From: a virus
Taxonomy: Duplodnaviria > Caudoviricetes
IMG/VR virus record: IMGVR_UViG_3300027863_000007
Location: 1 to 43,060 of that record
Strand: one strand, 5' to 3'
Length of the DNA: 43,060 bases
Part shown: positions 2,251-19,026 of the stretch, piece by piece
Numbering within the stretch: the stretch's first letter is position 1
How the letters are laid out: each line of letters opens with the position of its first letter
Notes under the pieces: generated by a model
Database searches by the model: none
What the model was told of the DNA's origin: nothing
Seen by the model: only the letters and a program-made list of their open reading frames with translations
Translations under genes and position numbers: made by a program

Positions 2251-3322
2251 GCCCCCCCTCCTGGCGGGTCAGCCCCGCCAACAACGCGTCCACCGCCGCC
2301 GCGCCCGACAGCTCGCCGGGGGGCCGGCCGCGCGGCGGCGCATGCGCCCGCAAGCGCCATTGCGACCACGCGCGGTCCCACAGCGCGACCTCGGGGTAGC
2401 GCGTGGCCCACCAGGGATCCTCGTGGAGCCAGGCCCACCACGCTCGCAGATCCGTCAGCGTCGCGCCGGCCTGCACCCAGCGGCGCACATAGCCGCCGGC
2501 GCGCAGGTGCCAGTCCCGCGGGGGCGCGACCCCCTCCGCGGCCACGGCGACCCGCCATTCGCCGACCAGGCGCCGCAAGTCCGGCGGCAACCGGGGCACC
2601 CGCACGCCGGCCCGAGCACGGCGGGGCACGGGCTCCGCGCGGTCAGCAACCGTTGCCGCCGCCAGCGGCATGGGTCCGTCCCCGCCCGCGGCGCGGGGGG
2701 GACCAGGAGGCGTAGCCTCCTGAGGGGGGTCTCCCGATCGGGCTGGTGTCTGCTGGTCGGTGTCTGGTGCCTGCTGATCGGTGACTGGTGACTGGTGACT
2801 AGTAGCCGGTTCGTGGTCTAAACGTCGCGCGTTCGTCACACCGTCGTGCGTGTGCCGTACCGCCTTCGTCGGACGGTCGTCCAACGGTCGTCGTACGTTC
2901 GTCGCACGAACGTTGGGTTCCTCGTCGGGCGCGGCGGCGACGGCCGTCCCGGTGGGCGGTGTCTCCCGCAGCCGGGGCGCCCGGGCCCGCCGGCTCTGTT
3001 GCGCCGCCAGCGAGCGCTCCCGCGCCTTGTGCCACTCTTGCCGCAGGCGCGGGGAGACGATGCGGCCGTGTTCGACGTGCAGGACCGCATACGGGCCCTC
3101 GATGAGGTCGGCGCGGAGGGCCTGCCACTCGGCGAGGGGCAGGCCCAACGCCCGCGCCAAGCCCCGGTCATCGTCGAGGAGGCCGAACTGGGTCTCGGTC
3201 GCTTCCCGCCACATCAGGCAGAGGAGTTCGATGTGCGCGCCTTTGGCGGCCACGGACTGATAGCGATTGTTCGCATCATCGAGCCAATCGCCCGGATAAA
3301 AGTCAAAGTGGGGATACCGCAC
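2234..3322 (-). CDS. Replication initiator, DUF1376/YdaU-like
   Basis: N-terminus PHFDFYPGDWL...KGAHIELLCLMW; central iteron region; upstream of G39P-like gene. Confidence 0.8.
   Translation of the reverse strand: MRYPHFDFYPGDWLDDANNRYQSVAAKGAHIELLCLMWREATETQFGLLDDDRGLARALGLPLAEWQALRADLIEGPYAVLHVEHGRIVSPRLRQEWHKARERSLAAQQSRRARAPRLRETPPTGTAVAAAPDEEPNVRATNVRRPLDDRPTKAVRHTHDGVTNARRLDHEPATSHQSPVTDQQAPDTDQQTPARSGDPPQEATPPGPPRAAGGDGPMPLAAATVADRAEPVPRRARAGVRVPRLPPDLRRLVGEWRVAVAAEGVAPPRDWHLRAGGYVRRWVQAGATLTDLRAWWAWLHEDPWWATRYPEVALWDRAWSQWRLRAHAPPRGRPPGELSGAAAVDALLAGLTRQEGGRDDPG
2780..2905. repeat. Putative replication origin: 11-bp phased iterons plus GGTGACT x3
   Basis: TCGT cores at 2811, 2833, 2844, 2866, 2877, 2888, 2899 (all multiples of 11 apart); GGTGACT x3 at 2780-2800; inside the initiator gene. 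Confidence 0.65.
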
Positions 3323-3355
3323 GCCCCGTGCCCCCTTGCCCTCTTGTCAACAACC

Positions 3356-3410
3356 GGTCCCCAGTCCCCGTCCCCCTGGGGACCCTGGCGGGCCCGTGGG
3401 TCCGCCCGCC
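3356..3410 (-). terminator. Two GC-rich hairpins at the 3' end of the pentamer array (terminator or processing signal)
   Basis: GGTCCCCAG (3356-3364) pairs with CTGGGGACC (3376-3384); GGCGGGC/GCCCGCC at 3387-3410; only a weak U-tract follows. Confidence 0.4.
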
Positions 3411-3429
3411 GCTCCCCCTGCCGCCCCGT

Positions 3430-3944
3430 GGGCGACGCCAGCACGTCCCAGCGCGCTCCAATGCCATCGCCGTGGCGGGGCCTTGCTATCCCGTCGCCCT
3501 GCCTCGCTCCACATCGCCGTCACAGTGCCTCGCCACCCAAGGCCTTCCCTGCCCAACGCGGTGCCGCTGCACGGCTGCCCAACGCGGTGCCGCTGCACGG
3601 CTTCGCCACCGCTGTCCGATTCGGTCCCGTTGCCAGGCAACGCGTTGCCAATACTCAGCTAGGCCGTCGCCTCCCAGGCCGACGCCATTCCCCGTCAGCA
3701 CGATGCCACCACTCCCCAAGGCTTCGCCCTCGCTCTCCCTTGCCATGGCATATCCCTGCCGGCACCCCCCGGCCTCAGCGATCCCGATGCCACCCCCGGC
3801 GCACCCCTGCCGTCGCGATGCCCACGCCAGCCCGTCCCGCACCCTGGCATGCCTCAGCCGCCGCCACCCGTCGCTAGCCTCCGCGTGGGCGTGCCGGCCC
3901 CCACCCACCCCGACCGGTCGCCCGGCCCCGGCACCCCAATGCCT
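3430..3944 (-). ncRNA. Putative non-coding pentamer-periodic array (candidate guide RNA of the Cas7-like protein)
   Basis: Minus strand parses as NG(S)NN pentamers in blocks opened by GGC(A/G), often spaced 5n+1 nt apart; no ORF with normal codon bias. Confidence 0.65.
3549..3600. repeat. Exact 26-bp tandem duplication inside the array
   Basis: ctgcccaacgcggtgccgctgcacgg x2, equal to one 5x5+1 block. Confidence 0.95.
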
Positions 3945-3954
3945 CCGGACATCC

Positions 3955-4728
3955 TTACGAGCTGTCGGGTAGGCGGTTTTTGCGGGCGGGATCCAGCCCG
4001 AAGCGGTCGACGGCCGCGTTGTACGCTCGGGCCGCCGCGAGGGCCGTGTCAAACAAGCCCAGTTCGACTTGGCGCCCGTGGACGTAAATGGCGGCCCGCC
4101 AGCGGCGGATGGCGGCTCGCCAATACACGCCGCGCCAGCCGCTCTGCGACCGCGGGGCGCCAATGGGCGGGCGGCGGAGGCGCACGGCCGCCACCTGATC
4201 CGGCGTCCACCGATCCTCGGGAAAGTTGAGCGCGGCATAGGCGCCCCGCGCCGCGACCGCCGCGGTGTCGTAGGCATGTGCCGCGTCCTCCGCGGTGCGG
4301 AAGCGACCCAGGAACCGTGGGTGATCCTCGCGTATCCGGGCCCCGTAACAGCGATACTGTGGGCTGTACGACACGCCCTTGTACGGCACTTGGCCCCGGC
4401 GGCGCCGCTGGTTCCACTGATTCTCGCGCACCGTCACCACGCGGAGGTTGGCCCGGCGGTTGTCCAACGGGTTGCCGTTGATGTGGTCGACCTGCAACCC
4501 CGGTGGGGCATCAAGAAGCCACCGGTGGAGGTACATGCGGTGCGTACGTTGGCCCCGCCGATACCCCCTAACGTAATGCACGTCCGCTACCCGGTGCCGG
4601 TGGCAGAACCAGTGGTATGCCTCCCAATCCGGTGGGAGTGGTCCGTCGACCCACGCCACATGCCCGTCCGGTAGGGGAATGGTGACGACCCCCGGTGGGG
4701 GCGTCGGAGCCATCGTGATCGCGATCAT
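3955..4728 (-). CDS. HNH endonuclease with two AP2 domains (257 aa)
   Basis: LHRWLL...VDHINGNPLDNRRANLR...N; AP2 motifs YKGVS...LGRF.TAEDAA.AYD and WRGVYW...LGLFDT..AAARAYN; ATGA-coupled to the upstream gene. Confidence 0.92.
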   Translation of the reverse strand: MIAITMAPTPPPGVVTIPLPDGHVAWVDGPLPPDWEAYHWFCHRHRVADVHYVRGYRRGQRTHRMYLHRWLLDAPPGLQVDHINGNPLDNRRANLRVVTVRENQWNQRRRRGQVPYKGVSYSPQYRCYGARIREDHPRFLGRFRTAEDAAHAYDTAAVAARGAYAALNFPEDRWTPDQVAAVRLRRPPIGAPRSQSGWRGVYWRAAIRRWRAAIYVHGRQVELGLFDTALAAARAYNAAVDRFGLDPARKNRLPDSS

Positions 4729-5450
4729 GCTTCCGGCTCCCATGCCACGACCCGATAGGTTCCAAAGCCAGCGGAACGCCATTGAGCGAGCCCACGCACC
4801 TGGCCGAGATCCAACAACTCCCGGATCAGATCCAGCGTCACGTCCGCTTTCACCCCCTGATCCAACACGCGGACGCGGAAGCGCAGATGGGTCCCCGCCG
4901 GCACGACGTCGCTCGTCGCGAGCGCGATCCGCGGGCCGCGGGCCGTCTCGGCCCGGAGCGGCCGCGTCAGTTCGCCGACAATCGGCTGGTCGAGCGGGAT
5001 TTGCCGGGGCTCCACATACACATAGCGGTTGATCTTCTCGCGCAGGTTTTTCACCGCCACGGCGCCCTTGGCGATGTTGCCCAGTTCCTTGAGGTGCCCG
5101 AGAATTTGGTAATTCCAGAGGAGCGGGCGGCCCTGGTCGTCGACGAAGAAGGTCGTTTTCGGCAGCCGCTCCCGGTCGGGCGCGGCCTCGTCGGGCGCGG
5201 CCTCGTCAGCCGCCGCCGCCGCCTGCCGATCTGCCCGGGCCCGCGCCTTGGCGGCGGGCAGATCGGTATAGGTCGGGTGGACCCGCGGGCCGCCGGTCGG
5301 GTGTCGGGCCGCTTCCTCGGCGGCCACATCCGGCCCGGGGGCCCGCGGGCGAATCCACGTGTCCCAGGTGCTATAATCGGCGGGCGTCGTCCCCAGGGCC
5401 GGCTCGGTGAGCTCGAGCGTGACCCAGGCTGACTGAAATCGCAACGGCAT
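4725..5450 (-). CDS. Stand-alone Cas7/RAMP-superfamily-like protein (241 aa)
   Basis: AAGGAGG plus ATG 5450; first strand VTLELTEPALG; G.PLLWNYQILGHLKE (equivalent to P.IPGSSLKG.LR); VPAGT.LRF; C-terminal G-rich loop GLAQWRSAGFGTY. Confidence 0.75.
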   Translation of the reverse strand: MPLRFQSAWVTLELTEPALGTTPADYSTWDTWIRPRAPGPDVAAEEAARHPTGGPRVHPTYTDLPAAKARARADRQAAAAADEAAPDEAAPDRERLPKTTFFVDDQGRPLLWNYQILGHLKELGNIAKGAVAVKNLREKINRYVYVEPRQIPLDQPIVGELTRPLRAETARGPRIALATSDVVPAGTHLRFRVRVLDQGVKADVTLDLIRELLDLGQVRGLAQWRSAGFGTYRVVAWEPEA

Positions 5451-5612
5451 CCCTCTGCCCTCCTTAGTGGGCTTGCACGACGCGGGGCCACGGATCCCCG
5501 TGGCCCTCGTGGCCACAGACGACACACCGCCACCGGTCCCCCGGCCGCCACACGACGAGCGGATGATCACACGGCGCCGGGATCGCTGGCGGCCGGGGCC
5601 CGCGCCGGCGGC

Positions 5613-5819
5613 TCATGGGGGCGCCGCCCCCTCGCTGCGCACGCGCGCGCGGCAGACGCGCTCCCAGGCGACGGCGGCCTGCACGCGCCAGATCGCCGCC
5701 TCCACCTCATCGGGGGCCACGGCTTCGGCCCACCACGCTTCCGCCGCTTCGCGGGCGGCTTGCGCGCGCTTCAGCGCGGCCCGCCAGTCGGGGGGCACCA
5801 CGATCCGTTGCGCCCTCAT
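5613..5819 (-). CDS. YaaL/DUF2508-like small helical protein
   Basis: ATGA coupling; A..WW..AVAPDEVEAAIWRVQAA pattern. Confidence 0.55.
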   Translation of the reverse strand: MRAQRIVVPPDWRAALKRAQAAREAAEAWWAEAVAPDEVEAAIWRVQAAVAWERVCRARVRSEGAAPP

Positions 5820-11802: not shown

Positions 11803-12078
11803 ATGAACGACACGGGCAGTGCGTGGCCGGGAGACCGATGGCCTTGGTATGAAGCGTACGTCGCCGCCCTAGCGGCGCTGCGTGGGTATACGCCGCGCTT
11901 GACCCCGCCTCATGACTGGGGGGCCGATATCCTGTTGTATCGGGGGCCCCAAGCGGCCCGGCCGGTATGGGCGATTCAGTGTAAGGCGTACCAGGATTCC
12001 GTGGGCGTACGGGTCTATGCGCGGACGCTGTGGCACCGGCAATCCCAAGGCATCGGCTCCTCGTGTTCGATGCCGTGA
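11803..12078 (+). pseudogene. Truncated Mrr-like (Mrr_cat) restriction endonuclease
   Basis: YE.YVA.L....GY...LTP..DWGADIL...AIQCKAY..SVG, then the similarity stops; C-terminal part absent. Confidence 0.6.
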
Positions 12079-12185
12079 CCGGAAACCGACTGCCGTTCGA
12101 TCGCCCAGAACAATTGGCGGACATCGAATGTCCCGAGGGTCCTGGCATTTTGCAGGGACTCAAGGCCGGTGGCAAGGAGGACGAG

Positions 12186-13337
12186 ATGTACATCCGGGGG
12201 AAAGGCCGCGGCAAGTGGCAGTGTATCTGGGAAGCGCGGGACCCGGCCACCGGCCGGCGGCGGCGCGTGACGGAAGTGGTATACGGCACCAAAAAAGACG
12301 CCGAGGCGCGATGGGTCACGCGCCAGGCCGAGTTGACGGCGGAGGCGGCGCGGCCGCAACCCGCGCATCCCCGCGATTGGACGGTGGGTGACCTCCTGGA
12401 CCACTGGCTGGCGGTCGTGTTGCCCACCGAAGGCCGGGCCCTGTCCACCCTCATCACTTATCGCACCTTGGTCGCACACCACATCCGCCCGACGCTGGGC
12501 CCCATGCGCCTGACCGCGCTCCACCCCACCCACCTTCAGCAAGCCGAAGCCACGTGGTTGGCCAACGGGCGCGCGGACGGCGGCCCGCTCAGTCCGAGTA
12601 CGGTCCGTCAATGCCACGCCATCCTGCGGCGGGCGCTCCAGGCGGCCGTCGATTGGGACCTCCTGCCGACAAATCCCGCCTCCCAGGTGCGCCAACCACG
12701 CGGGGAGGCCATCGAGATGCGCGTCTGGACGCCCGCCGAGATCGCGGCCTTTTGGCGCGTGGCGCAGGCCCACCGGTATGGACCCCTGTTTCGGCTGGTG
12801 TTGGCCACTGGGCTCCGGCAAGGGGAGGCGCTCGGCCTCCGGTGGGCGGACATCGACTGGGCCGCAGGCACACTCCACATCACCCAGCAACTGCTCCGGG
12901 CCCGCCGCGGCGCGCCGCCCCAGTTGGGCCCGCCCAAGACCGCGCGGGGGCGGCGGACCGTCGCCATCGGCCCGGACCTCATCGCCCTGTTGCAACGCGT
13001 GCGCACGGCCCAAAAAGCGGACCGGCTGGCGTGCGGTCCCGCGTACCAGGACCATGGCCTGGTCTTTCAGACGCCGCTCGGGACGCCGCTTCACCACCGG
13101 AATGTTGACCGGCTCCTCGCCCAGCTCATCCGCCGCGCGGGCGTGCCCCCGATCCGCTTTCACGATCTTCGGCACACCCATGCCGCGCTCCTCATCGCGG
13201 ATGGCTGGGACCCGCGCCTTATCGCCGACCGGCTGGGTCACGCTCAAATCGCGTTCACCCTCCAGGTGTACGGGCATCTCTTCCCGGGCCGCCAGCAGGA
13301 GGCGGCCACCCGCCTGGACCGCCTCTTTCGCGAGTAG
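12186..13337 (+). CDS. int: Tyrosine integrase (383 aa)
   Basis: AAGGAGG plus ATG 12186; N-terminal arm-binding domain; TGLRQGE, PKT, FHDLRH, RLGH and VY catalytic motifs. Confidence 0.96.
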   Translation: MYIRGKGRGKWQCIWEARDPATGRRRRVTEVVYGTKKDAEARWVTRQAELTAEAARPQPAHPRDWTVGDLLDHWLAVVLPTEGRALSTLITYRTLVAHHIRPTLGPMRLTALHPTHLQQAEATWLANGRADGGPLSPSTVRQCHAILRRALQAAVDWDLLPTNPASQVRQPRGEAIEMRVWTPAEIAAFWRVAQAHRYGPLFRLVLATGLRQGEALGLRWADIDWAAGTLHITQQLLRARRGAPPQLGPPKTARGRRTVAIGPDLIALLQRVRTAQKADRLACGPAYQDHGLVFQTPLGTPLHHRNVDRLLAQLIRRAGVPPIRFHDLRHTHAALLIADGWDPRLIADRLGHAQIAFTLQVYGHLFPGRQQEAATRLDRLFRE

Positions 13338-13426: not shown

Positions 13427-13436
13427 CAAATTTTGA

Positions 13437-13481
13437 TGGTGGGCGCGCATGGGATCGAACCATGGACCTCTTGAATGTGAA
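13437..13481 (-). other. attP core: 3' half of tRNA-Val(CAC)
   Basis: TTCACAT loop, TCAAG, T-arm CATGG-TTCGATC-CCATG, acceptor strand plus ACCA; 5' half missing. Confidence 0.88.
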
Positions 13482-13626: not shown

Positions 13627-13700
13627 TGGGTGGGGAGGAAGGATTCGAACCTTCGATCCGGGATTCAAAGTCCCGCGCCTTACCGCTTGGCTACTCCCCA
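13627..13700 (-). tRNA. tRNA-Gln(TTG)
   Basis: TGGGGAG/CTCCCCA acceptor, CGGGA-CTTTGAA-TCCCG anticodon arm, GTTCGAATC, encoded CCA. Confidence 0.92.
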
Positions 13701-13716
13701 GTCGCGTAGAGAACGA

Positions 13717-13794
13717 TGGTGGGCCCGGTCGGAGTCGAACCGACACTGCGCCGGGTTTAAGCCGGCCCCCTCTGCCGGATTGGGGTACGGGCCC
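13717..13794 (-). tRNA. tRNA-Leu(TAA), short variable loop
   Basis: GGGCCCG/CGGGCCC acceptor, GCCGG-CTTAAAC-CCGGC, GTTCGACTC, ACCA. Confidence 0.9.
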
Positions 13795-13795
13795 G

Positions 13796-13873
13796 TGGTC
13801 GGCCTGGCGGGAGTCGAACCCGCACGGACGGGGTTCTGAACCCTGCGCCTTTGCCAGATTGGGCGACAGGCCG
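13796..13873 (-). tRNA. tRNA-Leu(CAG), short variable loop
   Basis: CGGCCTG/CAGGCCG acceptor, CAGGG-TTCAGAA-CCCCG (one mismatch), GTTCGACTC, ACCA. Confidence 0.8.
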
Positions 13874-17951: not shown

Positions 17952-18545
17952 ATGGATATCCGCGTGCCTGACCCCGCGGCCCTGGAGGAGGCCGGCTTCG
18001 CCCCCGCCGCGATCGCGCGGCTCCGCGCGGCGTGGGCCGGGACGCCCGCCGCCCCCGCGGCGCCGGATCCGGCCGGGGCCGGGACGCCCGACGCCCCCGC
18101 GGCGCCGGATCCGGCCGGGGCCGGGACGCCCGACGCCCCCGCGGCGCCGGATCCGGCCGGGGCCGAGCGGCCGGCGGCCATGGCGCCGCCCCCGCCACCC
18201 CCGCGGGCGCATCACGGGGGCGCCAGCCGGGCGGCCCGACTGGGGGATCGCCTCATGGCCTGGGGCGCTCAGCACCGCCGGCCGCTGGTGCGGGTCCTGG
18301 TGGCCGCCGGGTGTCTCATGGCCGCCTGGCAGGGCTGGCGGCGCTATCGGTTGCTGGTCGTCTGCGGCGGCCTGTGGCTGGCCCAAGCGGTCGGCTGGCT
18401 CATGCCGCCGTTCGGCACCGCGGCGCTCGTGGTGGTGGGCGCGTGGCTCGCGTGGCGGTGGCGCGCCGGCCTCGTGCGGTGGGGGCTCGTGGCCCTCGCC
18501 ATCGGCGTCGCCGCGGTCATCGTGCGCGTCGTCAGCGGGTCCTAG
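17952..18545 (+). CDS. Membrane protein with Pro/Ala repeat linker
   Basis: GAGGAGGTG plus ATG 17952; about four hydrophobic segments in the C-terminal half. Confidence 0.75.
   Translation: MDIRVPDPAALEEAGFAPAAIARLRAAWAGTPAAPAAPDPAGAGTPDAPAAPDPAGAGTPDAPAAPDPAGAERPAAMAPPPPPPRAHHGGASRAARLGDRLMAWGAQHRRPLVRVLVAAGCLMAAWQGWRRYRLLVVCGGLWLAQAVGWLMPPFGTAALVVVGAWLAWRWRAGLVRWGLVALAIGVAAVIVRVVSGS
18034..18164. repeat. 42-bp tandem repeat x3 (AGTPDAPAAPDPAG)
   Basis: Copies start at 18034, 18076 and 18118. Confidence 0.95.
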
Positions 18546-18627
18546 GCGTCCAGACATCTCACCGCCCCCGGGCAGTCCGGGGGCGGTGAGGCCCTGGTGG
18601 TGTCGGGCGGCGCCGCGCCGTGACGCG

Positions 18628-19026
18628 CTATTGGCCCGCATTGGGGGCGCCGGGGTCCGGCCCGGGGCCGTCGGTCGGCGGCGGCGGCGTGAACGGCCCC
18701 ACGGGGACCGCGGGGCCGACCGCTGCGCTCGTAAGGTGTTGCGCCATGTCCGCGATCGCGTCGATGGTCGACGCTTGGCTGCCCGCCAGGCCCAGCGACC
18801 CGGCCGCCCGGGCGTGCCCGTGCTGCGCAATGCCGCTGCCGAGCATGAAGGCCACCAGCGCGCCCACCCACAGCTGAATCGCCGTGGCGCTGATATGCAC
18901 GCCGGCGAACTGGTAAATGAGAATGCCCAGGAGCGCCGCGATCGCCGCCTGAAACTGGCGGTCGCGGAGCGTCCGAATGAGGTCCTGATGCCATTGCACG
19001 GCCTGTTGCAGCTGGGGTGATGTCAT
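18628..19026 (-). CDS. Holin-like two-TM protein
   Basis: RQFQAAIAALLGILIYQFAG...LWVGALVAFMLGSGIA; last gene of the late operon. Confidence 0.6.
   Translation of the reverse strand: MTSPQLQQAVQWHQDLIRTLRDRQFQAAIAALLGILIYQFAGVHISATAIQLWVGALVAFMLGSGIAQHGHARAAGSLGLAGSQASTIDAIADMAQHLTSAAVGPAVPVGPFTPPPPTDGPGPDPGAPNAGQ

Follow-up and report, generated by a model that had tools for sequence, protein, structure and literature searches.

What is the G-rich, periodic tract in the early region of a phage genome, where the minus strand reads as runs of five-base units? An original prediction, made from the letters alone, took it for an array of guide units. The window, by which we mean the whole 43,060-nt virus record analyzed, contains an integrase, an att-like tRNA half, RecT/YqaJ, lysis, and tail genes, and its source is a temperate phage. 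Early-region genes on the minus strand occur in the order YqaJ, RecT, small open reading frames (ORFs), the gene for the RAMP protein P0001, an HNH-AP2 gene, the array, a DUF1376 replication gene, and a G39P-like loader. As we discuss below, the tract is probably a guide-RNA array of VIPR, a CRISPR-related DNA silencer published in 2026 and comprising seven types (10.64898/2026.04.26.720920), in which a protein that polymerizes once per five bases would use gapped pairing with DNA to silence competing mobile elements.

Features of the array locus, with positions in the window
Feature	Position	Strand	Remarks
Vipr-like RAMP protein P0001, 241 aa	4725..5450	-	Cas7/Csm3/Cmr fold; G-loop GLAQWRSAGFG
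HNH_3 + AP2 endonuclease	3955..4728	-	start overlaps the stop of the RAMP gene
Conserved leader, ~46 nt	3891..3936	-	predicted closing stem; near-invariant in 5/5 aligned close relatives
Pentamer array	3436..3890	-	N-G-S-N-N units; extra G gives a GG doublet at junctions
Exact 26-nt tandem duplication (one 5n+1 block length)	3549..3600	-	3549-3574 = 3575-3600; single copy in related contig
Two predicted GC-rich hairpins after the array	3355..3411	-	window z-score 0.13

The pentamer grammar of the tract is real. Between 3859 and 3436 on the minus strand, a periodic G occupied position 2, and hence every fifth base, in all 58 internal units, and position 3 was G or C in 48 of these units. At each junction, a second G directly after the in-phase G set a new phase, which created a GG doublet every 2-5 units. 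Parsed by these doublets, the array contained 22 GG-type blocks from 3859 downward, most with 2-5 units each and with no tails between them; 3890-3860 forms the first array block, whose parse is less certain. The proposed block length of 5n+1 held for 20 of the 21 blocks between 3859 and 3440, the sole exception being a 25-nt block (3785-3761) that is one base short within a G run, and the absent base is present in a related contig. Spacings that had seemed to misfit come from GGC sequences inside blocks. The proposed GGC(A/G) opener was too narrow, as GG starts 21 of 22 blocks and GGC starts 17 but GGC(A/G) only 14, and junctions have a loose GCAA-N-GGCA flavor. Plus-strand YGCC anchors at 3683, 3704, 3725, 3741, 3757, and 3788 (spaced 21, 21, 16, 16, and 31) and at 3531, 3562, 3588, and 3604 (spaced 31, 26, and 16) are present as described in the original prediction, as is the tandem duplication of one 26-nt block.

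These block counts derive from a model that imposes the grammar, and three analyses independent of that block model support it. First, in comparison with 1000 dinucleotide shuffles, the autocorrelation of G and of G(G/C) peaked at lags 5, 6, 10, 11, 16, 21, 26, 31/32, and 37, with z values of 4.3-6.3 for G(G/C) at lags 5, 6, 10, 11, 16, 21, 26, 31, and 37. The period-5 signal, for which this check had been proposed, was therefore significant; it remained after one copy of the 26-nt duplication was removed and corresponded to a quasi-period of ~5.3, which, as claimed, is not a multiple of 3. Second, the 5n+1 grammar scored 64.6 bits on 3436-3859 and a strict period of 5 scored 2.5 bits, with a mean of -39.9 and a maximum of -15.9 for the grammar score of 300 shuffles. 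Third, a free-emission model offered G spacings of 5, 6, and 4 learned these at 76, 24, and 1% from 8 close arrays and at 80, 19, and 1% from 49 family arrays (every second one). This model placed G at the fifth base of the 6-spacing in 97% (8 arrays) and 92% (49 arrays) of cases, and the shift is therefore +1 via a GG doublet. Two further stretches of the window, 18044-18201 and 18569-18699, also fire the array model, and the former is a tandem repeat of 39 nt that lies in a plus-strand ORF and encodes a Pro/Ala-rich sequence.

The array does not extend to 3944, as had been supposed, because 3891-3936 is a conserved leader. Useful covariation was absent from the leader, and its closing stem is a computational prediction. 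The two hairpins that follow the array are likely to be the 3' end of the transcript, and arrays of relatives also end in a long hairpin, with a sequence different from that in the window. Searches revealed no Rfam match in 3250-4100 and no sigma-70 promoter or U-tailed terminator in 3200-5800.

The P0001 gene lies 780 bases upstream of the array, with the HNH-AP2 gene between them. P0001 is a stand-alone RAMP-fold protein with a G-loop and a thumb. Its AlphaFold model (mean pLDDT 74.5) matched Cmr/Csm3/Cas7 chains with a best Foldseek E value of 2e-6 and aligned in VIA-align with a Z score of 12.4 (rmsd 3.6 over 159 residues). P0001 matched neither a Pfam nor a PHROG family, had a marginal PADLOC match to Cas6 (E 0.01), and, at E 0.001 or better, falls into a family of 2039 protein clusters. 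When a profile of 176 family proteins was compared with 109 ORFs from the initial 50 kb of phage SUSP1, the top match (E 7e-5) was SUSP1 Vipr, an ORF that we recognized because it agreed with 9 of the 10 residue numbers given in the structure paper, and this best match in the 50-kb stretch supports the probable assignment of the locus to VIPR. The match falls on the G-loop, where residues aligned with Asp177, Trp178, and Arg179 of SUSP1 are Gln (171/176), Trp or Phe (176/176), and Arg (175/176) in the family, and thus Asp-Trp-Arg of SUSP1 is Gln-Trp-Arg in P0001. His17 of SUSP1 has no aligned residue in the family, Arg138 aligns with Asp or Glu, an hhalign comparison with SUSP1 Vipr was weak (probability 19.7, 32 columns), and a tblastn search of annotated phages with P0001 failed to reach SUSP1. 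Asp177 contacts the first G of the GGY repeat, according to the SUSP1 structure paper. Our array no longer fixes this base: the first G of GGY is present in 18 of 58 internal units and a pyrimidine occupies position 3 in 37 of 58. Replacement of Asp177 by Gln, with the Trp and Arg of the G-loop kept, may fit the loss of that G, given an overall link to SUSP1 that is weak.

The HNH-AP2 gene is likely to be a mobile, homing-type insert rather than a core part of the system because its occurrence is sporadic: across 111 loci, L029 was the only other distinct locus with this gene, which otherwise recurred in a duplicate of the window. No conserved partner (vap) gene was evident, and neither a repeat-spacer array nor cas genes were seen among the genes scanned. 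Beside the phage integrase gene (12030-13337), 13436-13480 is a 45-nt 3' half of tRNA-Val(CAC) with 100% identity to the tRNA-Val gene in G140 and G158, two of 45 genomes from the order of G001, a metagenome-assembled genome whose locus L108 is titled Sulfobacillus sp. This tRNA half is likely to be attP and suggests a host from that order. At 13627-13873, beside the att-like site, the phage has three tRNA genes (Gln-TTG, Leu-TAA, and Leu-CAG). A scan of 35 long ORFs in 14000-43060, many of them shadow frames, gave matches only to endolysin, tail, and RusA families, and PHROGs recognized no terminase, portal, or capsid gene in this region at E 1e-4.

Is the array tied to the RAMP gene or to its surroundings? 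Among 109 family loci that carry P0001 relatives, a set that includes duplicates and the window itself (L028), 100 had an array of at least 100 nt on the strand of the gene; the array model has false positives, as it also fired on the reverse strand at 16 of the 109 loci, and several of the nine loci with no array are short or end at the gene. In a host-order control of 1.05 Mb around integrases and terminases, the sole long array, seen in two overlapping fetches of one locus, adjoins a RAMP homologue, and two array matches of ~110 nt were also obtained. The array accompanies the RAMP gene, upstream or downstream, regardless of neighbors, and the leader and array directly follow this gene in L001, L031, L032, and L033. 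Some family members carry far longer arrays, including L021:4287-5907, where 1.6 kb and 313 units lie upstream of the RAMP gene, and L215:1978-3201 (G174:C133), which has a 1.2-kb array with 53 junctions and was found by a DNA search after protein-profile genome searches had missed it. A first metagenome scan with the single P0001 protein found nothing.

Arrays of close relatives differ in length and sequence. In the compared part of the array of a related contig from an independent run, 22 substitutions were listed, which spared all 67 periodic G sites and hit the second G of a doublet once. This contig lacks one copy of the 26-nt duplication and carries 146 nt in place of 40 nt of the window array. 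Because 26-nt and 1-nt indels between the window array and its relative break the reading frame but keep the Gs, the tract is non-coding. With an adjacent RAMP gene and a family-wide grammar as additional evidence, the predicted guide-array character of the tract is well supported; a block or run of blocks is a putative functional guide, for which no target was found. Replacements in related contigs at window positions 3697-3738 and 3707-3889 (40 to 146, 168 to 215, and 181 to 350 nt) indicate that several array versions exist, and two of these come from the run that may have yielded the window.

There is some support for blocks as the units of array change, which had been predicted as block-wise growth. 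Loss of exactly one 26-nt block in the relative agrees with this idea, and breakpoints between related arrays fell at block edges in 17/39 and 18/39 cases versus ~19% expected, a test with some circularity, since extension ends at places where junction status differs. The window and its relatives carry one 4-unit block in several different surroundings. In a gut-type clade (L059, L066, L071-L078), two arrays lie ~4 kb apart, blocks reach 10-11 units, and variants show clear block sharing.

How does this locus compare with known VIPR systems, to which the original prediction made no link? The VIPR discovery paper describes alternative NNNGG, YNNNG, and NNNNG repeats as well as staggered arrays, for which the legend to fig. 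S18 gives "1 nt overlapping positions" and for which its text lists no experimental test (10.64898/2026.04.26.720920). Our tract is most likely an array of this published NNNNG staggered kind and not of the canonical GGY/NN kind, and the locus is most likely an additional example of an already published type of system. It shares with NNNNG and staggered VIPR loci a lone phage RAMP gene, a flanking pentamer array, one fixed G, and back-to-back units whose register shifts by 1 nt, with no CRISPR array seen. Blocks here have 2-5 units (family mode 5) and shift by +1 through a GG doublet, with G in both registers, and the wording of the legend may denote this layout or a -1 shift; in the literature text, figures and data files aside, we found no description of 5n+1 blocks this short.

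Broad features of VIPR, namely a stand-alone RAMP fold, a minimal phage locus, and pentamer repeats beside the gene, are all present. P0001 and its array resemble type II VIPR of SUSP1 and P. fulva in the RAMP fold, the Trp-Arg motif of the G-loop, and the five-base period. However, type II VIPR of SUSP1 has GGY/NN units, whereas only one G is fixed here (10.64898/2026.04.26.720920, 10.64898/2026.04.26.720927, 10.64898/2026.10.15.759431). SUSP1 guides have 9-16 in-phase repeats, each guide with its own invariant structured 3' tail, and the system carries vap1; by contrast, blocks at our locus are tail-less, each array has a single leader and a single terminal hairpin region, and we saw no conserved vap gene. 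Non-canonical VIPR pentamer clusters likewise place a Vipr-like fold next to 5-nt arrays whose cores differ from GGY, but are modeled as strict 5-nt runs with a fixed trinucleotide, and register shifts do not appear in the part of that description we consulted (10.64898/2026.10.21.760802). Finally, the fold is that of Cas7/Csm3/Cmr backbones of class 1 CRISPR systems, but the period is 5 rather than a 6-nt step.

By analogy with SUSP1, P0001 would coat the array RNA with one subunit per five bases, and SUSP1 structures suggest that each subunit may hold one S-N-N-N-G unit by its G. In the published VIPR code, variable dinucleotides spell the DNA target with a 1-nt skip. On this model, the two bases after S would pair with double-stranded DNA, every third target base would be skipped, and pairing would repress genes of rival elements. 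At the junction, the extra G would close one subunit register and open another. An early-operon transcript comprising the leader, array, and terminal hairpin could then give back-to-back short guides of about one helical turn that share one G and are either cut apart or act in runs. A junction with a shared G fits the fig. S18 legend on staggered arrays. Moreover, the solved DNA-bound VIPR filament has ~25 nt of RNA and five subunits per turn, near the 26 nt of the commonest block, and the reported match of SUSP1 vrRNA4 on its satellite has a six-unit, 18-bp footprint (10.64898/2026.10.15.759431). Short guides are therefore conceivable.

The observations behind the VIPR reading are the grammar, the fold, the family-wide linkage of gene and array, the fixed Gs with free positions elsewhere, and block-wise change. 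Against it, blocks of 2-5 units would contain 4-10 read bases under the published code, compared with 9-16 repeats in canonical guides. Blocks of 2-4 units carry little information, and we therefore keep in play a tentative alternative, rather unlikely on balance, in which the system is of VIPR type but has another read-out: blocks would be one-turn modules of a longer guide hinged at the extra G, and/or pairing would involve three bases of each unit (positions 4, 5, and the next 1). Single blocks do look too short for specificity. Block length is also peaked rather than geometric, with 4-6 units in 607 of 938 blocks from 72 de-replicated arrays (drawn from 111 arrays of at least 150 nt) and a family-wide mode of 5 units or 26 nt, near the filament turn; the close clade peaks at 4. 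Position 1 of the unit is the most variable (1.98 bits), but it is not more substituted than positions 4 and 5. Dinucleotide coupling between unit positions did not reveal a guide code. Against this alternative, coupling of position 1 with the next position 4 was weak (chi2 21 on 9 df). Three-base and junction-variant rules gave no excess of target matches either, and reuse of one 4-unit block in different contexts fits independent blocks.

Target searches bear on this question and on whether the array has targets at all. The gapped search of variable positions called for by the original prediction, run against the window, related loci, host-order DNA, and a viral collection, found no target above chance. 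Decoded arrays gave no target in the window plus 10 close loci under 19 rules, where piles of perfect scores were self-matches only, and all arrays gave none in all masked loci under 12 rules or, with one shuffle each, under 9 rules. An apparent excess for the 1-skip rule in masked loci was rejected as one array matching one tandem repeat. Eight close arrays gave no target in 2.3 Mb (both strands) of host-order integrase and terminase regions under 10 rules with 3 shuffles each, with small excesses at low scores only, and for the conserved codon positions of 252 ORF families, five-unit matches stayed below those of shuffles. Five exact-seed scans of the viral collection, three with gut-type-clade seeds and one each with seeds of L001-type arrays and of the window, gave 11, 3, 81, 17, and 72 matches, none of which extends into flanking units. 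These searches were small or dependent on exact seeds and do not refute targeting.

The same results could suggest that the array RNA binds the RAMP protein with no specific targets, as a scaffold, decoy, or sponge (against host Cas7 or a rival Vipr, for example), while its variable bases drift. Varying columns are nearly equal in frequency at unit positions 1, 3, 4, and 5 (9.2, 7.5, 7.9, and 8.0%), and thus the two presumed reading positions are not singled out. We consider this explanation improbable, however, as long, diverse arrays with block turnover are kept across the large P0001 family, real targets are probably absent from the DNA searched, and published VIPR types have targets (10.64898/2026.04.26.720920). 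A coding tract or a replication-origin iteron region, as might be imagined from one plus-strand frame that is stop-free across 3400-3960 and from the position just upstream of the DUF1376 replication gene, is already contradicted by the ~5.3 period, the indels, the variation in length and sequence among close relatives, and an array that follows the RAMP gene on either side whatever the neighbors.

A VIPR array thus remains our preferred reading, and this compact locus lends itself to testing how staggered arrays are processed and read, as well as how VIPR systems acquire their guides. Single-block differences among close relatives and a block length near the filament turn lead to predictions for small-RNA ends and for binding selection, and the gut-type clade is a good set for working out the guide code. 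More speculatively, and we think it doubtful, this large clade may write its guides in one-helical-turn modules of ~5 units plus one G, with the G as a hinge or processing mark and, as a single scaffold base is fixed, with three bases read per unit or reading across modules. If so, its guide code would differ from the published NN/1-skip rule, and modules swapped by recombination would be a visible route of guide acquisition without Cas1.
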